A DNA stretch of 64,000 nt from Deltaproteobacteria bacterium (GCA_016875025.1 VGSH01000001.1:30174-94173), one strand, 5' to 3'; positions 13,385 through 25,528 are shown, counted from the first letter of the stretch. Program-made: numbers and translations. The notes: generated by a model not told the origin, from the sequence alone.

Positions 13385-13852
13385 GTGCGTGACATAGCGA
13401 AAAAAAAATATGTTTTCAGTACAGCACTGATACTGACTTTGCTGTACGTAGTGACGCTGCTGCCGCTCAGCGGCTTTTCCTGCGCCTGCGATGCGGCTGA
13501 AACACAACAGAACGCTGAAGAGTTTTCGCTTGCGCAGTGCTGCTGTTCGGCCGGTGCCTGCACTGAAAAGGCGCCTGCCAAGCCTGTGCGCCCGGTTCGT
13601 GCCGGCGATCCGTTATGCGCTACCCACGAGATGTGCTGCTGTTCTTCCGCGAACGCTGATGAAATGGATGTTCAGGCCGCGGTTGTTAAAGACGAACGCC
13701 GCAGCCCTTTGAAAGACGGGCGCTGTGTGATTCTGTTGCCCACGGCTTTCATGCCTCAGTTGGAAGACGTCCCGTCCTCACCAGCAGTGAGGAACAGTGA
13801 ATGCCGATCCCCGCTTTCCCCCCATATTGCAACTACCATCCTTTTGCTGTGA
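13385..13852 (+). CDS. Cys-rich small exported/membrane-anchored protein (CxC, CCC, CCC clusters), unknown function
   Basis: GTG start with an AGGAA RBS. N-terminal K-rich plus hydrophobic signal/anchor. Motifs SCACD, CCCSAGAC and CATHEMCCCSS. Confidence 0.4.
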   Translation: MRDIAKKKYVFSTALILTLLYVVTLLPLSGFSCACDAAETQQNAEEFSLAQCCCSAGACTEKAPAKPVRPVRAGDPLCATHEMCCCSSANADEMDVQAAVVKDERRSPLKDGRCVILLPTAFMPQLEDVPSSPAVRNSECRSPLSPHIATTILLL

Positions 13853-14025
13853 GATTTTTGCAGCACCTGCACTGCCCCTGATTGTTGAGCCCAATTACCC
13901 TGCACCAGTTTGTTTGTGTGCGGTTGTAATGTAACGGGGCCTGGGCTGTTAAGGTTCTCCGGTGTTTGTTGTTACTCTGTCATGACCATCATGATCCTAT
14001 AGTTTTGGTATGAAAGGAATTATAT

Positions 14026-14406
14026 ATGCTGAAAAATACTCTTCGTACTGTATGTGTGATGTGTGCTGTGGCGCTGTTTATCGGATGTTCATCGCCTGAG
14101 GCGCAGAGCGGTCTGCGCCTGGGCGAGGATATCCCTGGGGGTGCTCCGGTTGTTAAACTGGCGGAGGTTCTCGCAAATCCGTCCGCGTTTAATGATGCAC
14201 GGGTTGTTTTAAAAGGTGTGGTGGCCAGCCAGTGCTCATCGCTGTGCCATTTCAACTTTCAGGACGGGGTCAACAGCGTAACCGTGTATCCGCAGGGTTT
14301 CAAGCTCCCGCGGCTGGGCCGCGGCAAAAATGTAACCCTGTATGCGCAGATATTCAGCGGTGAGGGTGGGGTTGCCTTTTCGGTGCTCGGCCTGAGCATG
14401 GAATAG
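14026..14406 (+). CDS. small lipoprotein, unknown function
   Basis: Lipobox LFIGCSS with a GAAAGGAA RBS. 126 aa. Immediately upstream of the ABC permease. Confidence 0.6.
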   Translation: MLKNTLRTVCVMCAVALFIGCSSPEAQSGLRLGEDIPGGAPVVKLAEVLANPSAFNDARVVLKGVVASQCSSLCHFNFQDGVNSVTVYPQGFKLPRLGRGKNVTLYAQIFSGEGGVAFSVLGLSME

Positions 14407-14415
14407 GGGGCTGAC

Positions 14416-15591
14416 ATGACATTTTTCAAAGTAGCGCTCAGTAATTTGAAACGCAACCGTGTCAGAACCCTGTTGACCGGCCTCAGCCTTGCGGTATCGG
14501 CAGCCACCCTGACCGTGGTGCTTGCGCTTGACCGCGGGTATTCATCAGCCGTAACCGATGATCTGGTTAATAAAACAGGCATACATCTGTATATCACCAA
14601 GGAAGGCTGCCCGATCGAGGCCGCCTCTGTTATCGCGCAGGGAGGCCTGAGCCCCCTGTATGTTGAAGAGGATATTCTCGCCCGGCTTGCGACTGTTGCC
14701 GATTTGGAGGCGATTCTGCCGTTCAAGCTGTTCGCCGTCACTACTGATGACGGCTCGCGAACCGATATTTTTATGGGTGTCACGGATGCGATTCTGTCCA
14801 TGAAGCCTGACTGGCGTTTTGCGGCCGGAGGCTGGCTCAAAGAGGATGACAGTGTTGTTATCGGAGCCGATATGGCCCAGATTGAATTCCTGCAGGTTGG
14901 CCAGCGCATGTATAATGAAAATTTTGACCGCGAGTTCACGGTAACCGGTATTCTGGAGCGCACCTACAGTCAGGATGACGGCACCTTTTTCGTGCCGCTG
15001 GCAACCGCGCAGGCCATGGTGCAGCGCGAGGGCAAGCTGTCGGCTGTCGGTTTGAAGCTGGCTGATATCAGCCGCATGGACCTGGTGCAGAATCAGCTGC
15101 GTGCTTTGATGCCGGCCGATTATTTTGTGCTGGGGTCAAAGGAACTCAGCGAGGGCATCCTGCAGTTTTTCGGAGCGACCCGGGCCATCATGATCGTGAT
15201 GGTGTTCGTGGCCTTCATCATCTCGGTGTTCGGCATTATCAATACCATGCTCATGGCCGTGCTGGAGCGCCGCCGCGAAATCGCCTATCTTAAATGCGTC
15301 GGCGCGGGCCGCCTTGACCTTGTGCGCCTAATCACGCTGGAGACGACTTCGATCGCTCTTGCCGGAAGCGCAGCCGGTGCGCTGCTGGGCATGGTGCTCA
15401 GTCCGGTTGCAGGCAATCTGCTGCGTACCTTTCTGGTTGCCTATGTGCCTTCGGGCCCCATCGCGCGTCCTGAACCGATGATTGCGCTGATGGCATTTAT
15501 ACTGTGCTCGATCGTCGGGCTTGCCTGTTCCCTGTATCCGGCACTGCGCGCGGCCCGGATTGTTCCCATGGAGGTGCTGAGAAATGACTGA
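14416..15591 (+). CDS. ABC transporter permease, FtsX/MacB/LolC family
   Basis: 391 aa with an N-terminal TM, a large periplasmic domain and three C-terminal TMs. Typical of FtsX-domain permeases. Confidence 0.85.
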   Translation: MTFFKVALSNLKRNRVRTLLTGLSLAVSAATLTVVLALDRGYSSAVTDDLVNKTGIHLYITKEGCPIEAASVIAQGGLSPLYVEEDILARLATVADLEAILPFKLFAVTTDDGSRTDIFMGVTDAILSMKPDWRFAAGGWLKEDDSVVIGADMAQIEFLQVGQRMYNENFDREFTVTGILERTYSQDDGTFFVPLATAQAMVQREGKLSAVGLKLADISRMDLVQNQLRALMPADYFVLGSKELSEGILQFFGATRAIMIVMVFVAFIISVFGIINTMLMAVLERRREIAYLKCVGAGRLDLVRLITLETTSIALAGSAAGALLGMVLSPVAGNLLRTFLVAYVPSGPIARPEPMIALMAFILCSIVGLACSLYPALRAARIVPMEVLRND

Positions 15592-16249
15592 GCATATTAT
15601 AGAACTTCACGATGTATCCAAAAACTACACCCGCGGTGTTGAAACCGTGCATGCCCTGCAGGAAGTGACCCTGAACGTTTCCAAAGGTGATTTTATCGCT
15701 GTGGTCGGCCATTCGGGCTCCGGTAAAACGACGATGATGAATATCATGGGCTGCCTCGACCACCCGAGCAGCGGCAGTGTTATTCTGCAGGGCCGTCCGA
15801 TTGAGCAGGCGAGCGAGTCCGCACTGACCCGTATGCGCCGCAGTGCGATCGGGTTTGTGTTCCAGCAGTTTTTTCTGGTGCCGACGCTGACGGTTCTTGA
15901 AAACGTAACGCTTCCGGCACTGTTCAGCGGCAATCATACCAACGGCCGCTCCCGGGATTTACTGGAAATGGTCGGACTGGGAAAGCGGCTCAACCATCTG
16001 CCGGGCCAGCTCTCAGGCGGTGAAATGCAGCGCGCGGCCATTGCGCGCGCGCTGGTCAATTCACCGCCGCTGGTGCTCGCCGATGAACCGACCGGCAATC
16101 TTGATTCCCGCAACGCCGACATGATCATGGAGCTGTTTGAGCAGCTCAACCGCGACGGTGTCACCATCGTTCTGGTTACGCATAACGCTGATATCGTCAA
16201 ACACTGTGAAAGGACGGTGCACATTGAAGACGGCCGCATATCGCAGTAA
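15584..16249 (+). CDS. ABC transporter ATP-binding protein (MacB/LolD-like)
   Basis: Walker A GHSGSGKTT, signature LSGGEMQR and Walker B LVLADEPT. 8-nt overlap with the permease gene. Confidence 0.9.
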   Translation: MTEHIIELHDVSKNYTRGVETVHALQEVTLNVSKGDFIAVVGHSGSGKTTMMNIMGCLDHPSSGSVILQGRPIEQASESALTRMRRSAIGFVFQQFFLVPTLTVLENVTLPALFSGNHTNGRSRDLLEMVGLGKRLNHLPGQLSGGEMQRAAIARALVNSPPLVLADEPTGNLDSRNADMIMELFEQLNRDGVTIVLVTHNADIVKHCERTVHIEDGRISQ

Positions 16250-16298
16250 CAGGCGCGCGGAGGAATCGTCGATATGCCGTCTGCCGGATCAGGGAACA

Positions 16299-17327
16299 GT
16301 GCTGCGACCGGGCAGGAAGCGGGGGCGCCTTCTGTATGCGATCGTAGTTGCGATCGCGCTGATGTGCGCAACCGGCCCGGCCGCTGAGTGCCGGGCTTCA
16401 TGGAACCTGTCGCTTGATGCAGACGCGCGCGGCAGGGTTGCCTCCGGCAGCGAGCCTGACGCAACCCTGAACCTGTTCGGTGCGTCATTGCGCAAGACAT
16501 TTGCCGATGCCAAAGGCGACCGGCTTGTTCTTTTCGCGCTGTTTGAAAGCGAAGAGGGGTTTGATGAGTCCCGCGATGAGAGCCTGCATGAAATCTACGC
16601 CCAGTACAAGGGTCCGATGGGAGCATGGAATATCACCCTTGGCCGTTTCGGATTGCCGTGGGGCCTGCTGCCGAATTTTTCCGCGAGCAGGCTGCTCTAT
16701 GACATGCCGCATGACCGGGTGCTGGGCATGGATGTTGACAGCGGTATCAAGCTGTCCGGCGTGCAGGGCATATTTGATTACGGTCTGTCCTATACCCGCG
16801 GCTACGGCCCGCGCAACACGGTCGATGCGGGCTCGCACGGTATTGCCACGGGCCGCATCGGGATTACCCCGGGCGAAACCGAGGAATTATCTTTGGGTCT
16901 CTCGGGAGCCTTGGGCCGCTCAATCAACGCGCACGGCGCAGATCACGATGAGCCGGACCACGGCGACCCGGACCACCGCAGGCGCGATGATGACCGGGCC
17001 CTGCAGCGCGCAGTTGTCGGGCTTGACAGCACGCTCTATCTCGGCCGCTGGCTGATACGCAGCGAGGTATCAGGCGGGCAGGTTGATAAACGCGGTATGC
17101 GTGCATTTTTTGCCGGGGCTGATTATGCCCTGCGCTCAAACCTTGACCTGAATCTTGCGGTAAATCTCAGCCGTGTTGATTCGGAAACTATGAATGAGTG
17201 GTTTGCAGGACTTACCTGCAGGCTGCCCTGGTTTATCCTGAGAGGAGAATATCGGTATGTCGGATACGGTGATGCGCGCAATCAGATTACCATTCAGCTC
17301 TATCGTTTTTTTTCTTATACTTGGTAG
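16299..17327 (+). CDS. putative outer-membrane beta-barrel protein with a His/Asp-rich segment
   Basis: GTG start giving a signal peptide MLRPGRKRGRLLYAIVVAIALMCATGPAAEC. C-terminal aromatic terminus ...YRFFSYTW. HGADHDEPDHGDPDHRRRDDD stretch. Confidence 0.45.
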   Translation: MLRPGRKRGRLLYAIVVAIALMCATGPAAECRASWNLSLDADARGRVASGSEPDATLNLFGASLRKTFADAKGDRLVLFALFESEEGFDESRDESLHEIYAQYKGPMGAWNITLGRFGLPWGLLPNFSASRLLYDMPHDRVLGMDVDSGIKLSGVQGIFDYGLSYTRGYGPRNTVDAGSHGIATGRIGITPGETEELSLGLSGALGRSINAHGADHDEPDHGDPDHRRRDDDRALQRAVVGLDSTLYLGRWLIRSEVSGGQVDKRGMRAFFAGADYALRSNLDLNLAVNLSRVDSETMNEWFAGLTCRLPWFILRGEYRYVGYGDARNQITIQLYRFFSYTW

Positions 17328-17847
17328 CGCTCTGCCGGCTGCGGCACAGGAGGCGTATTTGTGCGTGTGGCGCAACCCTGAGCGGACCATGACACGGATT
17401 TTTCCGGATGCCCGTGACTATAAATCCGTTACAGCGCGGATATCGGCCGAGCAGCGGGCCGTGATCGAAAAAACGCTCGGCTACGAGCTGCTGCCCGGCC
17501 AGCAGGACCAGTTTCAGTATTATCATATGCTGGATGCCGGCGGCAGCGCTATCGGCACGATTATTCCGTCGACTCAGAAAGGCGAGTTCGGCGCCGTGGA
17601 ATTCGTGTTCGGGCTCGGACCTGATACGACGATCAAAGGCCTTTATATTCAGCGAGCGCGCGAGCGCGACCAGGCCTTTAAAGACAGGGCGTTTCTGGAA
17701 CAGTTCATCGGCCGTTCAGCCGCTGACCGGCAGGCCATTCAACAGGTTGACGGCGGCGGCACAACGCCCGGCAAGCAGGCTGTGATCCGCGGGCTGGTCA
17801 AGGAGCTGACTACCATGGACACGGTTGCCGCCGCTGTTGGTCAGTAG
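17257..17847 (+). CDS. exported FMN_bind-domain protein
   Basis: GAGAGGAGAA RBS and a signal peptide. GAVEFVFGLGPDTTIKGLYI and F-LEQFIGRS...VDGGGTTPGKQAV resemble the RnfG/NosR-type FMN-binding domain. Confidence 0.55.
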   Translation: MSDTVMRAIRLPFSSIVFFLILGSALPAAAQEAYLCVWRNPERTMTRIFPDARDYKSVTARISAEQRAVIEKTLGYELLPGQQDQFQYYHMLDAGGSAIGTIIPSTQKGEFGAVEFVFGLGPDTTIKGLYIQRARERDQAFKDRAFLEQFIGRSAADRQAIQQVDGGGTTPGKQAVIRGLVKELTTMDTVAAAVGQ

Positions 17848-17929
17848 GTTTGTAAAGTGACAATCATCATCCGTCGGATCAGTTCTATCGGACCGATCCG
17901 ACGGATCGTACACCACGAAAGGACACAGC

Positions 17930-19330
17930 ATGAATTTTGCAAAAACAGTGCTTTGTGCTGCGGCGCTTGTTGCTCTGGGACTGGCTCTCGGCGCCTGTTC
18001 GCCTCCGCAGGACCGGACCAACTATTACGCCTATCTTGAACAGGATACGGCTGTTAAGGGCAGAACCGGTGTTTTGCTGACTGCGCTGGGCCAGCCGGAA
18101 GAGTATGAATTTTCTTTTTATAACAAATATCTGAATCATATTTTCGAGGCGGCCTTTCCACCGCTGCTGAAGTTGATTGTCATGCGGGATCGCGGCACCG
18201 TGCTGCTTGACCCGGCAAACCCCACGGCCGTCGAGCAGTTTACGCCCTCAGAACTGATGGACTGCTTCGGCAGTACGGTTAATGAGCAGGGTATACCGTA
18301 CACACAGCTTCCGGTGCAATGGGTAAAGCCGCGCACTAGTGACAGCCATGCCTACGGGCATTTTCTGCTCAAGGGGAAAAACGGTTTCGTTGATATCGCG
18401 GAGCGCTCTTCCGTCAAGATTGCGGCATCCTACTACGGTCGCATGCCCGGCAATATAATCCCCTTCAAGCAGCAGCATCGCGCACTTTTCAGTGATATTG
18501 AAAGCCTGCTGGCTGAGCAGTTTCCCGGTACGCCGATGAAAACAGCCTGGTCGATGTACCCTGATACCATTGCGCAGGCCATTGAAGAGCTGCTCAGCGA
18601 AAAGGTCGAAACCATCGTTGTGTGCAATCTGTTCCCGGTGTATTCAAACCTTGAGGAGTTCAACTCTCTGTTCGTTGAAATCGGGCAGATGGTTGCCGGC
18701 AGGGCCAAAATTGTGTTTAGTCCTTTTGCAGGGGTGTATGAATCGTATCGCGCGCCTTTTGTCGCCATGGCCCGGGCTGAAATCGAGCAGCTGCCGGCTG
18801 CATCAAAAAAGCTGCTGGTGCTCACCCGTCACGGTTTTCCGGAGATGAAGGGCGAGCCCTGGCATGATCTCGCGCCGGTTTTCTACGACAACCTGCTGCG
18901 GGAAGTCGAGCAGGCTCTCTCAGGCTCCAATACCCAGGTGGTTATCGCGGATACGGAATTCGCCTGCTCCGAGCATGATCCCAAAAACCTGCGCCTGTCG
19001 GCTGCCGAAGCCCTGGCGCAGGGCCTCGATCAGGGCAGCGATGCCGTCGTGTTCGTGCTTGTCGATTTTATGAGCGAAAATACGGACACGATTTTCTGCG
19101 CGCGCGAAGAGGCCCTTGAGACGATCGGCTTTACCTATGCCGGTACGGTTCCCTACAGCGATTTTTCCGTTCCCTTCAGAACGGATATGCGCTACGGCGC
19201 TACCCGGATTATCTTATCCGGCGCGCCCGTGGGCGATATGTATCGGCCTATGCTTGCCCGGGGGATTTTTGATGCGCTTTCAACCGTGCTGCGCGCTGAG
19301 GCATGGCCCGCTTTAACAGTTGGGAGTTAG
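17930..19330 (+). CDS. ferrochelatase-fold (class II chelatase-like) lipoprotein
   Basis: Lipobox LALGAC with an AAAGGA RBS. Motifs GVLLTALGQPE, IVVCNLFPVYSN and LVLTRHGFPE parallel the ferrochelatase GILLANLGTPD, VVLPLYPQFS and LLLSYHGIP. Confidence 0.55.
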   Translation: MNFAKTVLCAAALVALGLALGACSPPQDRTNYYAYLEQDTAVKGRTGVLLTALGQPEEYEFSFYNKYLNHIFEAAFPPLLKLIVMRDRGTVLLDPANPTAVEQFTPSELMDCFGSTVNEQGIPYTQLPVQWVKPRTSDSHAYGHFLLKGKNGFVDIAERSSVKIAASYYGRMPGNIIPFKQQHRALFSDIESLLAEQFPGTPMKTAWSMYPDTIAQAIEELLSEKVETIVVCNLFPVYSNLEEFNSLFVEIGQMVAGRAKIVFSPFAGVYESYRAPFVAMARAEIEQLPAASKKLLVLTRHGFPEMKGEPWHDLAPVFYDNLLREVEQALSGSNTQVVIADTEFACSEHDPKNLRLSAAEALAQGLDQGSDAVVFVLVDFMSENTDTIFCAREEALETIGFTYAGTVPYSDFSVPFRTDMRYGATRIILSGAPVGDMYRPMLARGIFDALSTVLRAEAWPALTVGS

Positions 19331-19651
19331 GAGTTGGGAGAAGACAGGTTCATGGTTCAAGAATTTGCGTGGGCAGATCCCTGCGCCTGCCCCCGCAGGG
19401 GCGACCGGCCGGTCGCCCTTACACAGAGGGTCGATTCAGGGCCGTCATCTTTTTGCTCCTGCGATTTCGCCTGGAAAGTATATCCGTCTGATCGGTCGGA
19501 TTTGCCCGAACAGACCGCTTGTTTTCTTTTGCCTTGACAAGCACCTGTCCAGTAAGAATAATCATAGGTAACCGCGCAGCCGAGTTGATGTGTTGATTAA
19601 ATCACCCGTTTACAGCTGTGCTTTTCATTGTCCGGACTTGGATGGTATCCT

Positions 19652-19858
19652 ATGGCGTGCGTTAAAAAAAATCCCTGTCCTGACTGCACATTTTGCCAAT
19701 GGTGTTCCGACACCCGGTGTGCGGTGTGTATGGGTACATGTGAACGATGTCCGAAAAAAACACTGCAGGAGCAGATCGATGAATATGAACGCAACAACCC
19801 CGGCAGGCCGCAGGCGGATCAGCCGATCTTGTACAAAAAAACTCCAGTCGGCAGTTAA
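19652..19858 (+). CDS. possible Cys-rich small peptide (8 Cys in 25 aa); overlaps the next gene in another frame
   Basis: MACVKKNPCPDCTFCQWCSDTRCAVCMGTCERCP... Mixed GC3 composition. Overlaps the 19779 start region of the next gene, so either call may be wrong. Confidence 0.2.
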   Translation: MACVKKNPCPDCTFCQWCSDTRCAVCMGTCERCPKKTLQEQIDEYERNNPGRPQADQPILYKKTPVGS

Positions 19859-20984
19859 AACGGCGGCGTGTGCTCTGGTCGTGCTGCTGCTTGTGCGCGC
19901 ATCCGTGTGCCGGGCAGCCGCTGATGCCGATCTTTCCAAACTGCAGCCTGGCATGGCACTGCCGGCAATCCGCATTGTGCAGGACCTGACTCCTGAACAG
20001 CGCAGCTATCTTGGCCTGCCCGGCCGTCTGATCGGAATGTTCACGGGTAAGGGTTTCAAGCCTTCCGACGTTGCGGCCGATGTGCTGGTGATTGAATTTT
20101 TCAATGTGTACTGCACCTCCTGCCAGAGTCAGGCATCGATTCTGAACGAAGTGTTTCAGCGGGTCAACTCCCGTGACGACATGCGCGACCGGGTTAAATT
20201 TTTCGGCATCGGCGCGGGTAACAATCAGCAGGAAGCCGCCATGTTCATGCGGCGCTATTCGGTCGGTTTTCCGATGTTTCCTGATCCCGACTTTGTGAAC
20301 TACGAGGCTGTCGGCGAGCCGGGCGCAACTCCCCTTACAATTATTGCCCGGAAACACGGCAAAGAGCTTCTGGTTGTCAGCGCCCATGCCGGCCTTGTTA
20401 AAAATGCGGATGTTTTTATGACGGCCATACGCACTGCGCTGGCCAGCTCTCCTGATGGGCTTGCCGCTGAATCTGCGCAGAAGGAGCCGGCACAGGCCGT
20501 GAAACGGCCGCGCATTGAGCTGAATATGAGCGATGACCAGATTGAACAGGCTGTTCTCACCAGCATGCGCCGTGCTGCGGGCGGAGATGACTCCATTACA
20601 TCCGTGCGAACGGTGAGTTATCCGCGCAGCGGTGATATTTTTGTCGCCACGCCCGCAGGTGCTGTTTCAAATCTGTACGCGCAGGTTGTCAGCCGACCGC
20701 CCACATGTGATGTATGCCACGGTGTGCATTTTATTCTGGTGTTCGACGGAGCCGGCATTCTGCGCTATTTCGAGCCTCTGCACCTGACCAAGTACGGCAA
20801 TGTCGTGTGGACTCAATACGATGCCGATTTCATGCGGCGGCATTTGATCGGTCTTGATGTGCGGCAGCCCTTTGAATATAATCCGTCGGTTGATTCAGTG
20901 ACCACTGCCACCATGACATCCGTGATTATTTATAACAGCGCGCAGCGCCTGCGTGATGTACTCAAGGAAATTAAGTCGCAATAG
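19779..20984 (+). CDS. exported thioredoxin-like (CxxC) plus C-terminal FMN_bind domain fusion protein
   Basis: Signal peptide with a long basic n-region. VLVIEFFNVYCTSCQ redoxin motif. C-terminal VDSVTTATMTSVII matches the FMN_bind flavinylation motif (VDxxSGATxTS). CxxCH present (CDVCHG). Confidence 0.55.
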   Translation: MNMNATTPAGRRRISRSCTKKLQSAVKTAACALVVLLLVRASVCRAAADADLSKLQPGMALPAIRIVQDLTPEQRSYLGLPGRLIGMFTGKGFKPSDVAADVLVIEFFNVYCTSCQSQASILNEVFQRVNSRDDMRDRVKFFGIGAGNNQQEAAMFMRRYSVGFPMFPDPDFVNYEAVGEPGATPLTIIARKHGKELLVVSAHAGLVKNADVFMTAIRTALASSPDGLAAESAQKEPAQAVKRPRIELNMSDDQIEQAVLTSMRRAAGGDDSITSVRTVSYPRSGDIFVATPAGAVSNLYAQVVSRPPTCDVCHGVHFILVFDGAGILRYFEPLHLTKYGNVVWTQYDADFMRRHLIGLDVRQPFEYNPSVDSVTTATMTSVIIYNSAQRLRDVLKEIKSQ

Positions 20985-21042: not shown

Positions 21043-21324
21043 ATGTCTGATGAAAACAATTCGTATGTTCCGTTACCGAAAAATACCCCGGCATTCATCT
21101 GCGCCGGCTGCGGAGCCGTTGCCCTTGACCGTGAAAGCATCTGTACACCGCAGGGCCGGGGCACCAGGGCTGACTGGTGCTGTTCTGAGTCCGGTGCCGC
21201 TCCTTCATATTGTCGTAATGCGGTACACACCGAGCGCTATCAGTGCAAAAACTGCGGTCAGGTGGCGGTTAATTCCGGCCTGCTGTGCGACCCGCAAAAA
21301 ATGCTCCGGCCTGAAGAAAAGTAG
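21043..21324 (+). CDS. small zinc-ribbon / rubredoxin-like protein
   Basis: Strong AAGGAG RBS. Two CxxC pairs (CAGCG...CTPQ and CKNCG...CDPQ). Confidence 0.55.
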   Translation: MSDENNSYVPLPKNTPAFICAGCGAVALDRESICTPQGRGTRADWCCSESGAAPSYCRNAVHTERYQCKNCGQVAVNSGLLCDPQKMLRPEEK

Positions 21325-21375: not shown

Positions 21376-22215
21376 TTACCTGCGAAGGGCTTTCACACTG
21401 AAACCGGCAAGATAGATACAGCCCGTCACCATGACAATGGTAGCGCCCCCGGGCAGGTCGAGGCTGTAGCTCAGGCACAGGCCCGCAGCGATACACAGCA
21501 TGCTTATGACTGCGGCAGCGATCATCATCTGCCACAGCCTGCCGCAGAACTGACCGGCTATCGCAGCCGGCAGGCTCAGCAGGGCGACCACCATGATAAT
21601 TCCTACAATCCGTATCAGCAGCACGATCGTCAGCGCGGTCAGGCCCAGCAGCAGCAGGTACAGCATGCGGGTGTTGAGACCGCGCAGCCGCGCAAATTCC
21701 TCATCAAAGCACACCGCCTGCAGACGGTTATAGAAAAGCATGCTGATGACGATGATGACCGTGTCAAGGATGAGAATAATCCATACATCAGCCGATGAAA
21801 TCATCAGGATATTGCCGAACAGGTAGCTCATGGGATCTGTGTACCCCGGTGTTTTGGCGATCAGCAGGATGCCGGCTGCCATGCCCAGCACCCACAGTGC
21901 GCTGATAACCGTATCTTCGCGCTCACGGGCATACATGCTTACCACGCCGATTATCAGCGCCGCAGACAGGGCCGCGAACAGCGCTCCCAGAATCGGATCG
22001 GCCCAGGTCAGGCCGTACACCTGCTGGAGGTACAGTGCCGCGCCGATACCGCCCAGCACGCAGTGGGCGATAGAGCCGGCCAGATAGCTGATGCGCTTGA
22101 CCACCACGAACGAGCCGATGATGCCGAAGGCAATGCCGGCCAGCAGCCCGGCAGCCATGGCGTACCGCAGAAAAGCGATATCAGGATCGCGCAGGGCCTG
22201 GATAAATTCAATCAT
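21376..22215 (-). CDS. znuB: ABC-3 family metal (zinc/manganese) transporter permease
   Basis: 279-aa polytopic protein typical of ZnuB/MntB/TroCD. Overlaps the ATPase gene. Confidence 0.8.
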   Translation of the reverse strand: MIEFIQALRDPDIAFLRYAMAAGLLAGIAFGIIGSFVVVKRISYLAGSIAHCVLGGIGAALYLQQVYGLTWADPILGALFAALSAALIIGVVSMYAREREDTVISALWVLGMAAGILLIAKTPGYTDPMSYLFGNILMISSADVWIILILDTVIIVISMLFYNRLQAVCFDEEFARLRGLNTRMLYLLLLGLTALTIVLLIRIVGIIMVVALLSLPAAIAGQFCGRLWQMMIAAAVISMLCIAAGLCLSYSLDLPGGATIVMVTGCIYLAGFSVKALRR

Positions 22216-22966
22216 GGGTATGCCCCTGTTGTGAACACTGATGATCGTGCCGTACCATTTTCAGGTCCGAGCCGTAGATTTCCTGAATGATTTCGCCGGT
22301 GATTTCGCTGGTCGGGTGAAGCTTGACGGTGCGGTTCACGCACAGCACGCGATCCACCATGCGGGAGACAAAGCCGAGCTCATGGGTTACCGTGATAACG
22401 GTCAGGCGGTGTGCAAGGCGCGCAAGGGTGTCATTGACCTGCTGCTCCATGGCGGGATCGACATGCGCGGTCGGCTCATCCAGCAGCAGCAGTTCGGGTT
22501 CGCAGGCCAGGGCGCGGGCGATCAGCACACGCTGGCGCTGCCCGCCGGAAAGCGACGCAAACGGGCGCGCAGCCAGATCGACAAGGCCGGTTTGAGCAAG
22601 TGCCTGAAGGGCGGCTGCTTTGTCGGACCGTGAATAAAAAGAGCCCGGCCGTCTTCCCAGGCGGCCCATGAGCACAATATTGAGAACGCTGATGGGAAAA
22701 CTCGGATCAAAGTGCGTACTCTGGGGCATATAGCCGATACGGCGGCTGTTTGCATGCGGCATCCCGCCAAGAACCCTGATGCTGCCTGAGGCGGGGTGAT
22801 GAAGACCCAGTATGAGCTTGATGAGGGTTGTCTTGCCGCCGCCGTTGGGCCCTACAATGCAGACCGATTCGTGCTCGAAAAGGTTAAAGCTCACATTGTG
22901 GAGAATTTCCGTCTGGTCGTAGGCAAAGCAGACATTGTTGAAGCTGATTACGGGTTGCGGCATCAT
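22208..22966 (-). CDS. znuC: metal ABC transporter ATP-binding protein
   Basis: GPNGGGKTT Walker A, LSGGQRQR signature and LLLLDEPT Walker B. Confidence 0.85.
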   Translation of the reverse strand: MMPQPVISFNNVCFAYDQTEILHNVSFNLFEHESVCIVGPNGGGKTTLIKLILGLHHPASGSIRVLGGMPHANSRRIGYMPQSTHFDPSFPISVLNIVLMGRLGRRPGSFYSRSDKAAALQALAQTGLVDLAARPFASLSGGQRQRVLIARALACEPELLLLDEPTAHVDPAMEQQVNDTLARLAHRLTVITVTHELGFVSRMVDRVLCVNRTVKLHPTSEITGEIIQEIYGSDLKMVRHDHQCSQQGHTHD

Positions 22967-23967
22967 GGTGTATGCCCGTGGCCGGCTTTGGTATGCGCCG
23001 GGTCGTTTGGAATTGTTTGATCGAAGGCGCCCGCGATTGCATTGGCCATGGTCTGCAGGTTCCGAATAACATCTTTGGCAAGCGGATCAAGCGGCACTAC
23101 AGTCCCATTTATCTGGGCGGCAATGGTCTGCGCGGTTTTGGTATCAAATTGCGGCTGCACAAAGATGGTGCGCACGCCCGATGAGCGGGCCTGTTTGATC
23201 AGTGCGGAAATGTGCCGGGCAGTCGGCTGGCGACCGTTGATTTCAACCGTCTGCTGGTTCAAAGTGTAGGTGTGGGCAAAATAGCCGAATGCAGGATGAT
23301 ACACAAAAAAAGTCCTGTTCCGATGCGGTTGCAGAAGTCTGAGATTTCCAGCATGTGCGGCCTCAAGTGCGGCCAGCAGCCGGGTGGTGTTTTGGGCATA
23401 GGCCGCTGCATTGTCGGGATCAGCTTCAGTGATGACACGCTGCGCGAGTTCGATGAACTGGCGCAGTTGACGGGTTCCGAGCCAGAAGTGCGGGTCATGT
23501 CCGGTGTGGTCATGATCAGCGCCGTGATCACCGGAACAGACCTGTTCGTGGTCGGCACTCAGGAGGTCAATGTGCTTTCCCGTGTCAATGATGCGGATTT
23601 TTGTATGCTGAGCCCTGATCTTGTCCACCAGAATACGTTCAAAGGGCAGTCCGGCCATCAGGTACAGCTGAGCATTGGACAGCCTGTGCAGCAGGCGCGG
23701 TCCCGGTTCAAACATGTGCGGGTCCTGACCCTCCGGAAGGAGTGTGTCGACCGTAACCAGCGTGCCGCCGATCTGTTCAATGCAGTAAGCCAGCGGCGCG
23801 ATAGCGGTACAGATGCGCAGGGGGGTAGCTTCAGGCCGGGCAGGGTTGCCGGCGGTCGGGTACAGCAGCGCAATCAGGCACAGGTGTAAAATCAGTGCCG
23901 TGCTCTGACACCGGCTCCGCATCCGTAAACAGGCGCGTGATGCCATTCTGGAAAATTCCGCGTGCAT
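22963..23967 (-). CDS. znuA: metal ABC transporter periplasmic substrate-binding protein (ZnuA/TroA family) with a His-rich loop
   Basis: Cluster-9 SBP fold signatures plus a His-rich loop DHGADHDHTGHDPH characteristic of zinc-specific ZnuA. Confidence 0.75.
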   Translation of the reverse strand: MHAEFSRMASRACLRMRSRCQSTALILHLCLIALLYPTAGNPARPEATPLRICTAIAPLAYCIEQIGGTLVTVDTLLPEGQDPHMFEPGPRLLHRLSNAQLYLMAGLPFERILVDKIRAQHTKIRIIDTGKHIDLLSADHEQVCSGDHGADHDHTGHDPHFWLGTRQLRQFIELAQRVITEADPDNAAAYAQNTTRLLAALEAAHAGNLRLLQPHRNRTFFVYHPAFGYFAHTYTLNQQTVEINGRQPTARHISALIKQARSSGVRTIFVQPQFDTKTAQTIAAQINGTVVPLDPLAKDVIRNLQTMANAIAGAFDQTIPNDPAHTKAGHGHTP

Positions 23968-24301
23968 GCTCTCTCAGTGTGCTGGTGCCATGGTGAAAAA
24001 GTGAACGATAACCCTGACATGCCTGTCTGGTGTGGCTGCAAAATTTCAGCCGCTTACCAGAGCACGTTATAACAATTCATGGGTGTAATCGCAAGACTGA
24101 AAAAAGCCATGTTCTGGTTTGGAAGGTCTGGCTTTTTAAATGTATTCTGAGGGCGGATAATATCTTTTGTTTTCCGCCGCGCAAAGGAGTAGTATGGTGA
24201 CACATGCAGACGTCCTTCCGCATGACCCGCGCCGGGATTTTTCCGCTGTGTTCTCTCATACACAGGCTTTTTTAACAATGCCCATTTCAGCAGGAGCTTT
24301 T

Positions 24302-25528
24302 ATGGAAAACAAAAGAATATTCATAGGGAATTTAGAATTCTCTGTGACAGAGGATGATGTGAAAAGCCTTGTGGCGCACTACGGTGCTGTTGTGTCGGTT
24401 AAAATGAATCGTAAAAAAGGCTTTGCGTTTATCGAGATGGATACCGCTGAAGCTGCCGCACGAGCGGTGCAGCAGCTTGACGGCATAAAGCACAGGGATC
24501 GTGAAATCCGCCTGAGCTTTGAAATGAAAGCCGCCAAGGCGAGGTTCGTATCGGCAAAACGATACAAAGAGCGCGGTGATGCTTTTGCCCGGCACAGAGC
24601 CGAAGCTCTGCCTGACCCGGAAAGACTGTTGTCAGATGAGCGGCAGCCGTATCCGCGTCGTGCTGAACGGGGCGGCGGCCGGCCGGTTTATAAACGCACA
24701 TCGGGGCCGGATGCGGGCGTTGGGTCGCGCGGCCGCTCAGGCGCTGCAGATGCGCGCCCGGCGCGATCATATCAACGCGATGCCGGAGCAGCGTCGCGGC
24801 CTGCTAAGCGTCCATGGTCCGAAGAGAAACCGTCCTATCCGCGCCGGCCAGACCGTGATGGTGAGCGGCCGGTTTATAAACGCGCGCCGAAGCCTGATGC
24901 GGGCGTTGCTCCGCGCCGGAGACCAGGCGATGCAGACAGGCGTCCGGCGCGATCATATCAACGCGATGCCGGAGCAGCGTCGCGGCCTGCTAAGCGTCCA
25001 TGGTCGGAAGAGAAACCCTTGTATCCGCGCCGGTCGGCAGGCGCGGGCGAACAGACTGCATACAGGCGCACACCGAAGCCGGATGCGGGTTTTACACCGC
25101 GCGGGGGCATGCGCGCTGCAGACGCACGGCCGCCGCGAACCTGTCGGCGCGATACAGGCGCACCCGGACGGCCTGTCAGACGTCCATGGTCGGAAGAGAA
25201 ACCCTTGTATCCGCGCCCGGCTGAACGGGATGGCGGACGTGACGGATATGCACGGGCTCCGAAAAAAGAATGGCCTTCAGCGCGACCGTCGCGACCCGCA
25301 GTGAAAACAGGCGAGCCCCGGGGAGAGCATTCTCAGAGAAAAAAAATATCTGGCGGCAAGCCGCATGATGTTTTAAAACAGAGGCCTGCAGGCGGTACGC
25401 ATGGCAAATACAGGAAACCGTCGCGTCCGGGCGCGCGTCGTGCAGCAGGTACTTCAGCCCCATCCCGACACAAAGTCCGCGGCAATTCACAGGATCGCGG
25501 CACCCCCCGCAAAGAGACTGAGCAGTAA
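24302..25528 (+). CDS. RRM-domain RNA-binding protein with a long basic/Pro-rich C-terminal tandem-repeat tail
   Basis: N-terminal RNP motifs IFIGNLEFS and KGFAFIEM. The C-terminus contains about 3.5 copies of a 57-60-aa repeat (PxYPRR...RPVYKR...PKPDAG...RPWSEEK). Confidence 0.6.
   Translation: MENKRIFIGNLEFSVTEDDVKSLVAHYGAVVSVKMNRKKGFAFIEMDTAEAAARAVQQLDGIKHRDREIRLSFEMKAAKARFVSAKRYKERGDAFARHRAEALPDPERLLSDERQPYPRRAERGGGRPVYKRTSGPDAGVGSRGRSGAADARPARSYQRDAGAASRPAKRPWSEEKPSYPRRPDRDGERPVYKRAPKPDAGVAPRRRPGDADRRPARSYQRDAGAASRPAKRPWSEEKPLYPRRSAGAGEQTAYRRTPKPDAGFTPRGGMRAADARPPRTCRRDTGAPGRPVRRPWSEEKPLYPRPAERDGGRDGYARAPKKEWPSARPSRPAVKTGEPRGEHSQRKKISGGKPHDVLKQRPAGGTHGKYRKPSRPGARRAAGTSAPSRHKVRGNSQDRGTPRKETEQ
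24646..25290 (+). repeat. in-frame tandem repeat array (about 171-180 bp unit, about 3.5 copies) inside the RRM protein gene
   Basis: Near-identical DNA blocks, e.g. gcgatcatatcaacgcgatgccggagcagcgtcgcggcctgctaagcgtccatggtc recurs. Coding, not CRISPR. Confidence 0.8.

Follow-up and report, generated by a model that had tools for sequence, protein, structure and literature searches.

Does the locus described here encode an electron relay from flavin to thiol outside the cytoplasm, and, if so, which of its proteins take part? The locus lies in a window of 64,000 nucleotides (the whole stretch of DNA analysed) from a Deltaproteobacteria/Thermodesulfobacteriota metagenome-assembled genome (MAG), and its three genes, all on the plus strand, lie at 17257-20984. 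The original prediction, made from the sequence alone, saw FMN_bind-type motifs (FMN, flavin mononucleotide) in two exported products, open reading frame 1 (ORF1) and a fusion of a thioredoxin-like (Trx) domain to a flavin-type domain, and proposed such a relay. The translations agree with both reading frames and with signal-peptide-like N-termini in each:

17257-17847, plus strand: ORF1, 196 amino acids, signal-peptide-like N-terminus; plausibly a remote RnfG-like fold, without a flavinylation motif
17930-19330, plus strand: lipoprotein of 466 amino acids, leader LGLALGAC, with a Ferrochelatase Pfam match (E 4e-11, above threshold)
19779-20984, plus strand: fusion gene, Trx and FMN_bind-like domains, 401 amino acids; product predicted to be exported

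The idea of two FMN_bind proteins has support for the fusion protein, with its modelled RnfG/NqrC-type fold and conserved motif, and fails for ORF1, which belongs to a separate gene cassette and has no attachment motif. An extracytoplasmic relay is a supported reading of the fusion protein, more strongly so than the sequence alone could show, on the strength of its fold, its flavinylation-type motif and an apbE gene directly upstream in seven relatives; ORF1 has no part in it.

A conserved fusion of two domains

The fusion ORF is uninterrupted, and its product is 100% identical to a protein deposited with the MAG, 'hypothetical protein FJ119_00265'. A homologue search returned 63 sequences, mostly full length and with identity down to 29%, and relatives were identified in 158 species-representative genomes, mostly of Thermodesulfobacteriota. 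The carriers include Desulfuromonadales, Geobacteraceae, Syntrophaceae and Desulfobacterales, with a few Poribacteria or Zhuqueibacterota; at least one carrier, Geothermobacter hydrogeniphilus HR-1 (locus L078), is in culture. A profile built on the last 156 residues matched just 260 proteins among 1.84 billion representatives, and the matches listed were almost all ~360-390 amino acids long, with the matching segment within the C-terminal half. The C-terminal domain is never convincingly seen without the Trx domain, and the architecture is obligate. Nine short profile matches were examined as candidate stand-alone CxxCH domains; all were leaderless and fragment-like, and no independent occurrence was established. 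The original prediction had allowed that the fusion might be an artefact of a frameshift or a missed stop; we exclude this, because of the 63 homologues and the constant presence of the C-terminal domain beside a Trx domain, together with the identity to the MAG protein.

The following features were identified within the fusion gene:

19779-19922, plus strand: signal-peptide-like N-terminus (charged n-region, hydrophobic AACALVVLLLV, then AAA/DAD)
19941-20444, plus strand: TlpA/ResA/CcmG-like thioredoxin-fold domain (Foldseek, Pfam)
20112-20123, plus strand: CTSC active-site motif (C112, C115)
20529-20984, plus strand: divergent domain, modelled as RnfG/NqrC-type and FMN-binding-like
20706-20720, plus strand: C310-D-V-C313-H314
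20787-20810, plus strand: T-K-Y-G-N-V-V-W (T337, K338, N341 and W344 invariant)
20892-20912, plus strand: D-S-V-T-T-A-T, candidate ApbE flavinylation motif with T378 as predicted FMN-linked residue (the string DSVTTATMTS starts at 20892)

Short Sec-type leaders occur at the same place in the fusion homologues, and the leader features predict that the fusion protein is extracytoplasmic. The AlphaFold2 (AF2) model of the protein has a pLDDT of 83.7 and a pTM of 0.79. Statements on invariant residues below refer to an alignment of 31 fusion homologues, and the motif survey covers 88-89 full-length family members.

Some family members are longer. Six were examined, of which the four complete ones have 504-588 amino acids, and they contain a second Trx-like insert without CxxC. 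A Cys-rich tail (C..C...CP..G.....C..HG.N..GC) is present in long forms P0222, P0223 and P0231 and in the truncated P0221 and P0269, and is missing from P0317. Examples for comparison lie at L010 7816-9501, L011 1103-2788 and L036 7849-9537; the long form is often divergent from a short form, with a small Cys-rich ORF in between. At L036, a long-form paralogue with an intact CxxCH adjoins a copy in which this motif reads CDTGH.

The thioredoxin domain

Foldseek searches of the PDB with the N-terminal domain placed ResA, DsbE, TlpA and CcmG on top (E 1e-7 to 1e-5, target TM-scores 0.7-0.8), with StoA and FetE also among the matches, all at probability 1.00. In the AF2 model a helix (113-130) begins directly past C112, so that the CxxC stands at the N-terminus of helix 1. 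The window copy matches the AhpC-TSA and Thioredoxin Pfam models weakly, at ~17 bits against cutoffs of 23-27; AhpC-TSA is matched by 31/31 homologues (best E 1.6e-8), the Redoxin and Thioredoxin models also find matches, and the copy at L079 matches NCBIfam ResA at 5e-8, below cutoff. Both cysteines of the CTSC motif are invariant, and the dipeptide between them is unusually variable across 89 members (TS, PH, FS, AS, YH and others). The N-terminal domain is confirmed as a TlpA-like thioredoxin domain, as had been predicted.

The C-terminal domain

Structural comparison of the C-terminal domain placed RnfG and NqrC proteins at the top of the list: RnfG 7zc6_G (score 11.1), RnfG 8ahx_G (10.7), NqrC 4xhf (10.2), BB0365, which has an NqrC-like fold (9.6), NqrC 3lwx and 7xk3_C (9.4 each) and the putative RnfG 3dcz (8.9), followed by the next match at 6.7. 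The small FMN_bind domains 8p2a, 8p2b, 3o6u and 2kzx stand lower. As modelled, the fusion C-terminus has an RnfG/NqrC-type fold. When family members were scanned singly, 20 of the 31 homologues matched the FMN_bind model PF04205, all below threshold, with a best E of 8.5e-5.

The residues that are invariant in this domain group into three motifs, which a MAFFT alignment with two RnfG sequences puts on the three conserved FMN_bind motifs. C310-D-V-C313-H314 aligns with the K-G-Y-A-G loop of RnfG, T-K-Y-G-N-V-V-W with ETPGLG, and D372-x-V-x-x-A377-T378-x-T380 with x-x-I-T-G-A-T-I-T. The first of these, which the original prediction missed and on which any mechanism turns, is invariant as C-D-x-C-H in the alignment, and C..CH is retained in all but one of 88 full-length family ORFs. 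An Asp-His dyad in this motif was also considered, an idea that lost weight once D311 and H317 proved variable across more distant members.

In the crystal structure of NqrC, the isoalloxazine ring is squeezed between loop 6-7 (Leu149, Trp150) and a loop with Thr177, Leu180 and Gly181, and the flavin is linked to Thr229 and receives hydrogen bonds from Thr177 and Thr231, the loop threonine bonding flavin N5 (PMC4348036). From a 10%-identity alignment combined with the fold match, we infer that T337, T378 and T380 correspond to Thr177, Thr229 and Thr231; by the same comparison, the flavin-packing loop 6-7 would have its equivalent in the CDxCH loop.

The candidate flavinylation motif and ApbE

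In the literature, ApbE substrates carry D-x-x-[S/T]-G-A-[S/T], in which a change of G to A keeps ~50% flavinylation and Ser may replace Thr (PMC12052999). DSVTTAT agrees with it at every specified position save the Gly. D372, A377 and T378 are invariant in the 31 aligned homologues, and D-x-x-[ST]-x-A-[TS] is near-universal in the 89 full-length members, a few of which have the canonical SGAT; the Gly position is free, being occupied by T, S, M, R, A, L, F, Q or G, of which the S and G of some members agree with published variants. The flavinylation consensus that the original prediction regarded as preserved in the string DSVTTATMTS is therefore retained in its D, A and T and altered in its Gly. 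No canonical D..[ST]GA[ST] was found in window ORFs of at least 100 amino acids.

The original prediction was right that the window contains no ApbE, the flavin transferase: neither Pfam scans of 58 ORFs, which are essentially every large ORF of the 64 kb, nor tblastn with a bona fide ApbE from L084 identified one. This absence says little, because ApbE works in trans and an adjacent copy is the exception in the family. In seven species-level loci (L049, L066, L070, L071, L079, L080 and L084), apbE lies directly upstream of the fusion gene and on the same strand, and at least in L049 and L070 it runs into the fusion start. The upstream gene is assigned to ApbE by Pfam PF02424 (E 4e-68 and 4.9e-64), and in 5/7 of these loci no ORF within 6 kb other than the fusion has D..[ST][GS]A[ST].

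The apbE gene is preceded by a gene for an exported protein of 130 amino acids, and in three loci apbE is followed by a further gene, for the Trx domain alone. At L079 (7086-11818), L066 and L080 the order is the 130-amino-acid exported protein (C-x6-C), ApbE with a twin-arginine-like leader, a stand-alone Trx protein of 195 amino acids, and the fusion. The stand-alone Trx protein may be a diffusible partner of the fusion. At L079, an ORF of 381 amino acids resembling an outer-membrane barrel lies upstream of the apbE operon genes.

Gene neighbourhood of the fusion

All ORFs within 6 kb of a family member were clustered across 82 loci, and the 25 most frequent neighbour clusters were inspected, six by Pfam and the rest by eye. 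Six loci have a gene for a multihaem cytochrome c immediately ahead of the fusion, and in L041 the two genes overlap by 4 nt. An FdhE-like protein, at times with formate dehydrogenase genes, was identified near the fusion in 4-6 loci, and sigma-54 two-component regulators recur. One clade has the fusion in a stress island, with rubrerythrin, a class-I pyridine-nucleotide disulfide oxidoreductase, an MJ1433-like protein, a ferritin-like protein, AhpC and MsrA/MsrB, which suggests a reductive repair role. DsbD and CcdA are absent from the 58 window ORFs scanned with Pfam, and the 25 most frequent neighbour clusters show no sign of either; the same is true of PepSY-, NapH- and MsrQ-like proteins and of Rnf/Nqr membrane donors. 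The MJ1433-like neighbour was considered as a DsbD analogue and not counted, having two N-terminal hydrophobic segments and no Cys pair.

In the window, the fusion gene is accompanied by a promoter-like site and two small ORFs:

19534-19562, plus strand: sigma-70-type promoter-like site (TTGACA, 17-nt spacer, AATAAT; 11/12 consensus matches, a consensus match only)
19652-19858, plus strand: small Cys-rich ORF (CPDCTFCQWCSDTRCAVC..., MACVKKNPCPDCTFCQWCSDTRCAVC...), 68 amino acids, unannotated, without a leader, overlapping the fusion start by 80 nt
21043-21324, plus strand: Cys-rich Zn-ribbon-like ORF directly 3' of the fusion, 93 amino acids; Zn-ribbon matches weak

The 68-amino-acid ORF, which the original prediction also missed, matches no Pfam or NCBIfam family. 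Its homologues (tblastn, 41-94% identity) lie directly upstream of a fusion homologue in 11 species-level loci and beside fusion homologues in 14, several of them between divergent short- and long-form paralogues; it also occurs inside the same cluster in rubrerythrin-type loci. It is probably co-transcribed with the fusion as part of the same unit. The 93-amino-acid ORF is conserved downstream of the fusion in five loci (L004/L009, L018, L036 and L046), at 58-74% identity. The position of the promoter-like site suggests a transcription unit separate from the gene cassette upstream.

A proposed flavin-to-thiol relay

The explanation that we prefer, and hold tentatively at a little short of even confidence, is that the protein is a Sec-exported fusion of a Trx domain to an ApbE-flavinylated RnfG/NqrC-type domain, with C310 and C313 forming a dithiol at the flavin and the whole acting as a flavin-to-thiol relay. 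The two-domain architecture, the folds, the conserved motifs and the apbE next to the gene in relatives are observations on which this proposal builds. The N-terminal domain is a thiol-disulfide oxidoreductase of the TlpA/ResA type with the active site C112-T-S-C115. An ApbE encoded elsewhere in the genome would attach FMN to T378 of D-S-V-T-T-A-T, in a flavin site to which all three conserved C-terminal motifs contribute. The flavin-packing loop of NqrC would be replaced by C310-D-V-C313-H314, a redox-active dithiol next to the flavin of the kind known from flavoprotein disulfide reductases and sulfhydryl oxidases, and electrons would pass between the flavin and C310/C313, between C310/C313 and C112/C115, and between C112/C115 and periplasmic client proteins, the direction of flow and the clients being presumed, as are the FMN attachment and the place of C310/C313 beside it. 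The flavin could in turn exchange electrons with periplasmic carriers, for example the multihaem cytochromes encoded upstream in some relatives. The fusion would replace the usual DsbD/CcdA supply line, and the company of rubrerythrin, ferritin-like, AhpC and MsrA/B proteins would favour a reductive role in damage repair or stress in the periplasm of anaerobes. A dithiol at the flavin would explain both why the C-terminal domain is never found without a Trx domain and why no DsbD/CcdA is encoded alongside.

Several results weigh against this proposal. The Pfam scan suggested with the original prediction went against its wording, as neither the fusion protein of the window nor ORF1 matches FMN_bind at E<=1. 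Foldseek against the PDB returned nothing for the C-terminal domain, and a profile of the domain matched no PDB sequence even at E 10. The canonical Gly is replaced by variable residues, so that ApbE may not recognise the motif efficiently; ApbE is missing from the window, and apbE is adjacent in only 7 of ~80 loci. One member, at L036 (9944-11107), reads CDTGH and has lost the second Cys. Literature searches found no experimental data on any family member. Finally, a strict His after the second Cys, with D311 and H317 variable, is the pattern expected of a haem-c site and goes beyond the needs of a simple dithiol.

This last point leads to the alternative that survives best, unlikely in our estimation and still to be taken seriously, in which the CxxCH is a haem-c site and the protein a flavocytochrome with haem c, covalent FMN and a Trx dithiol in one chain. 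The haem would take single electrons from the cytochrome pool, the FMN would convert one-electron to two-electron steps, and the Trx CxxC would be reduced at the flavin directly or via another partner. Only C-x-x-C-H never varies in the loop, C..CH being retained in wider-family variants in which D311 and H317 change, and the motif belongs to a protein with a Sec-type leader. Cytochrome c maturation requires little beyond an exposed CxxCH. Most hosts belong to Desulfuromonadales, Geobacteraceae or other Thermodesulfobacteriota, groups rich in cytochrome c; the multihaem cytochrome genes that directly precede the fusion in six loci fit this company, and the Trx domain of the fusion resembles ResA and CcmG, which classically maintain the CxxCH of apocytochromes in the reduced state. 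However, no cytochrome Pfam family was matched in 31 members even at E<=10, the modelled fold is the RnfG/NqrC beta-sheet with the motif in a loop between two strands, and no conserved distal ligand is evident in the alignment. The loop would by homology occupy the flavin-packing position, probably leaving little room for a haem. A Cys pair bound in thioethers would, in addition, leave no dithiol next to the flavin, which, to our knowledge, is present in all well-studied flavin-dependent disulfide reductases.

A second alternative, which we consider distinctly improbable, dispenses with the flavin altogether: the C-terminal domain would have an RnfG-like fold that has degenerated, like that of Borrelia BB0365, and would now bind a substrate or a metal (Cys2His) or play a structural part, and the protein would be an ordinary TlpA-like reductase fed by DsbD/CcdA encoded elsewhere. 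The unmatched FMN_bind model in the window copy, the motif without its canonical Gly and the missing ApbE could all be read in this way, and the small Cys-rich proteins together with the ZnuABC, ZIP and GDT1 genes nearby would fit a metal role. In contrast, the D, A and T of the flavinylation motif and the equivalents of the two flavin-hydrogen-bonding threonines are invariant down to 29% identity, for which a domain without the cofactor offers no easy explanation, and apbE directly precedes the fusion in seven genomes, in five of which no other ORF within 6 kb has the motif. The adjacency of metal transporters was not seen in the relatives examined.

A third alternative, in which ORF1 and the fusion cooperate as two FMN_bind flavoproteins in a single extracytoplasmic relay, has very little to recommend it beyond their spacing of 2 kb on the same strand and the RnfG-like core that both may share, given that ORF1 has neither the attachment residue nor the genomic company of the fusion, as follows.

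ORF1 belongs to a separate ABC-transporter cassette

ORF1 has a family of more than 220 members, with an invariant CVWRNPERTM (17362-17391 in the window) right behind the leader and a conserved YIQRARERD block. It has no Pfam match at E<=1, and PF04205 is matched by 0/25 of its homologues at E<=10. NCBIfam RnfG matches ORF1 weakly (E 7.7e-4, 19 bits against a cutoff of 230), and among PDB sequences two RnfG chains score best with the family profile (E 0.0047 and 0.044), so that a remote RnfG-like core is plausible. Across 25 homologues, the segment that aligns with the flavinylation site shows no conservation, and Gly or Ala stands where the Thr would be; the FMN_bind-type motifs that the original prediction had read in ORF1 are not borne out. 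Apo-NqrC binds free FMN very weakly in the absence of the covalent bond (PMC4348036). A flavin-free role is thus the sensible default for ORF1, because it lacks an attachment residue and apo-NqrC itself holds FMN so poorly.

Upstream of ORF1 lie four further genes of an ATP-binding cassette (ABC) transporter unit:

14026-14406, plus strand: small exported lipoprotein, OB-fold-like
14416-15591, plus strand: MacB/FtsX permease (Pfam/NCBIfam)
15584-16249, plus strand: ABC ATPase (Pfam/NCBIfam)
16137-17327, plus strand: barrel-like protein of ~330-400 amino acids, with a weak sub-threshold Pfam match; true start uncertain

The same order of five genes, with an ORF1 homologue last, was identified in three unrelated contigs (L005, L088 and L089), and the overlap between the stop of the preceding gene and the start of ORF1 seen in the window recurs in the cassette contigs. 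The source names of ORF1 homologues include Chitinispirillales, Endomicrobia and Coatesbacteria. No fusion homologue, ferrochelatase-like gene or ApbE was found in the L005, L088 and L089 cassette contexts, and none of 86 fusion-bearing loci has an ORF1 homologue. The cassette as a whole likewise adjoins the fusion in none of 80 genome loci, nor in the further gene contexts that were inspected. In L004/L009 the fusion unit lies directly behind an Amidohydro_2 gene and the cassette is absent; because the two adjoin directly there, the whole block 13385-19330 of the window is an insertion relative to these loci, and the promoter-like site ahead of the fusion unit also argues against a shared role. 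An hhalign comparison of the C-terminal domain family with the ORF1 family was not significant, though in the expected register. Thus, ORF1 is the terminal gene of a separate, mobile MacB-type ABC cassette, and ORF1 and the fusion are neighbours by accident and not a functional pair.

A possible precedent for ORF1 is Borrelia burgdorferi BB0365 (PDB 6r1g), a lipoprotein of the periplasm that folds like NqrC/RnfG and is not annotated as flavin-binding. ORF1 differs from it in having no detectable sequence relationship, its own CVWRNPERTM and its own ABC-cassette context.

Other features of the window

The lipoprotein gene between ORF1 and the fusion (17930-19330) would encode an exported class-II chelatase-like protein, to judge from its Pfam match and leader. 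A single-sequence search found no PDB relative of it, and in relatives the ORF1 cassette does not include it. At 13385-13852 on the plus strand we identified an exported-looking protein of 155 amino acids with the Cys runs CACD, CCCSAGAC and CCCSS and no Pfam/NCBIfam match. Metal-transport genes lie at 581-2393 and 21376-23967, comprising a GDT1-family cation/proton antiporter, a ZIP transporter and a minus-strand ZnuABC operon, the ZnuA of which has a His/Asp-rich loop. Further downstream, at 24167-25528 on the plus strand, is a gene for an RRM-domain protein with a long Arg/Pro-rich tail that contains three repeats of ~70 amino acids (...PARSYQRDAGAASRPAKRPWSEEKP.YPRR...).

Relation to known systems

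The fusion resembles RnfG and NqrC (PF04205), the classical ApbE substrates, in the position of its candidate attachment motif ahead of a C-terminal helix, with its Thr aligned to the flavinylated Thr, and shares with them an extracytoplasmic location (predicted for the fusion) and, in some genomes, an adjacent apbE. Unlike them, it is no subunit of a membrane complex, has no anchor beyond the leader and lies below the Pfam threshold; the Gly of SGAT is variable, LTKYGN..W stands for ETPGLG and CDxCH for GYxG, and a Trx domain is always fused. With TlpA, ResA, CcmG and DsbE it shares the N-terminal structural match, the CxxC and (by its leader) export. Those proteins are of a single domain and are reduced by CcdA/DsbD, whereas the fusion carries a flavin-type domain, has no such gene nearby and has an unusually variable dipeptide within its CxxC, including a DsbA-like CPHC.

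In the QSOX/Erv sulfhydryl oxidases and in the NTRC-type fusions of thioredoxin reductase to thioredoxin, a Trx CxxC is fused to a flavin adenine dinucleotide (FAD) module with a flavin-adjacent Cys pair. The logic, a Trx CxxC combined with a flavin module that has its own Cys pair, would be shared by the fusion as a functional analogy only, since the folds are unrelated, the FAD is non-covalent where the FMN here would be phosphoester-linked, and the compartments are different.

The nearest precedent for combining thiol and flavinylation chemistry in one extracytoplasmic electron-transfer system is that of Meheust et al. (2021), who described 'hybrid thioredoxin-like/flavinylation' clusters of DsbD, DUF3570, thioredoxin-like, DUF4266 and ApbE proteins, and P19/FTR1 clusters in which an FMN-binding protein in Gram-positives and a thioredoxin-like protein in Gram-negatives are seemingly interchangeable (PMC8238504). 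In those clusters the components are separate proteins, with a flavinylated DUF3570 or a canonical FMN_bind, whereas the fusion is one polypeptide. A 2024 follow-up mentions no thioredoxin or disulfide link (PMC11334425). Full-text literature searches, this follow-up and a 2025 review contain no description of a covalent Trx-FMN_bind fusion or of an FMN_bind domain with CxxCH. The parts, a TlpA-like Trx domain and what by fold and motif appears to be an RnfG/NqrC-type ApbE-substrate domain, are known, and their covalent combination has not been described before. Surveys of flavinylation with hidden Markov models probably missed the family because its flavin domain is too divergent for Pfam.

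Significance of the fusion family

Extracytoplasmic redox carriers have been described as three separate classes: thioredoxin-like proteins, cytochromes and ApbE-flavinylated proteins (PMC8238504). The fusion family would weld at least two of these classes, and possibly all three, into one polypeptide. At its most ambitious, and here we are rather doubtful, the family would represent a self-contained periplasmic flavin-dependent thiol-disulfide oxidoreductase that joins thiols to the flavin/cytochrome network of anaerobes and bypasses DsbD/CcdA, a bacterial counterpart, flavinylated by ApbE, of the QSOX- or NTRC-type fusions, with, in the strongest form, a Trx dithiol, covalent FMN and haem c within ~400 residues. 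If the flavin is attached, the sequence space of ApbE substrates would be wider than the current motif, with the Gly dispensable, and the family would offer a compact protein for studying flavin-to-dithiol electron transfer outside the cell; its occurrence in the cultured G. hydrogeniphilus HR-1 makes the gene open to experiment. Attachment of the flavin would also mean that, in strict anaerobes, the reduction or oxidation of periplasmic thiols is fed from flavin and cytochrome pools, and not from cytoplasmic thioredoxin via DsbD.

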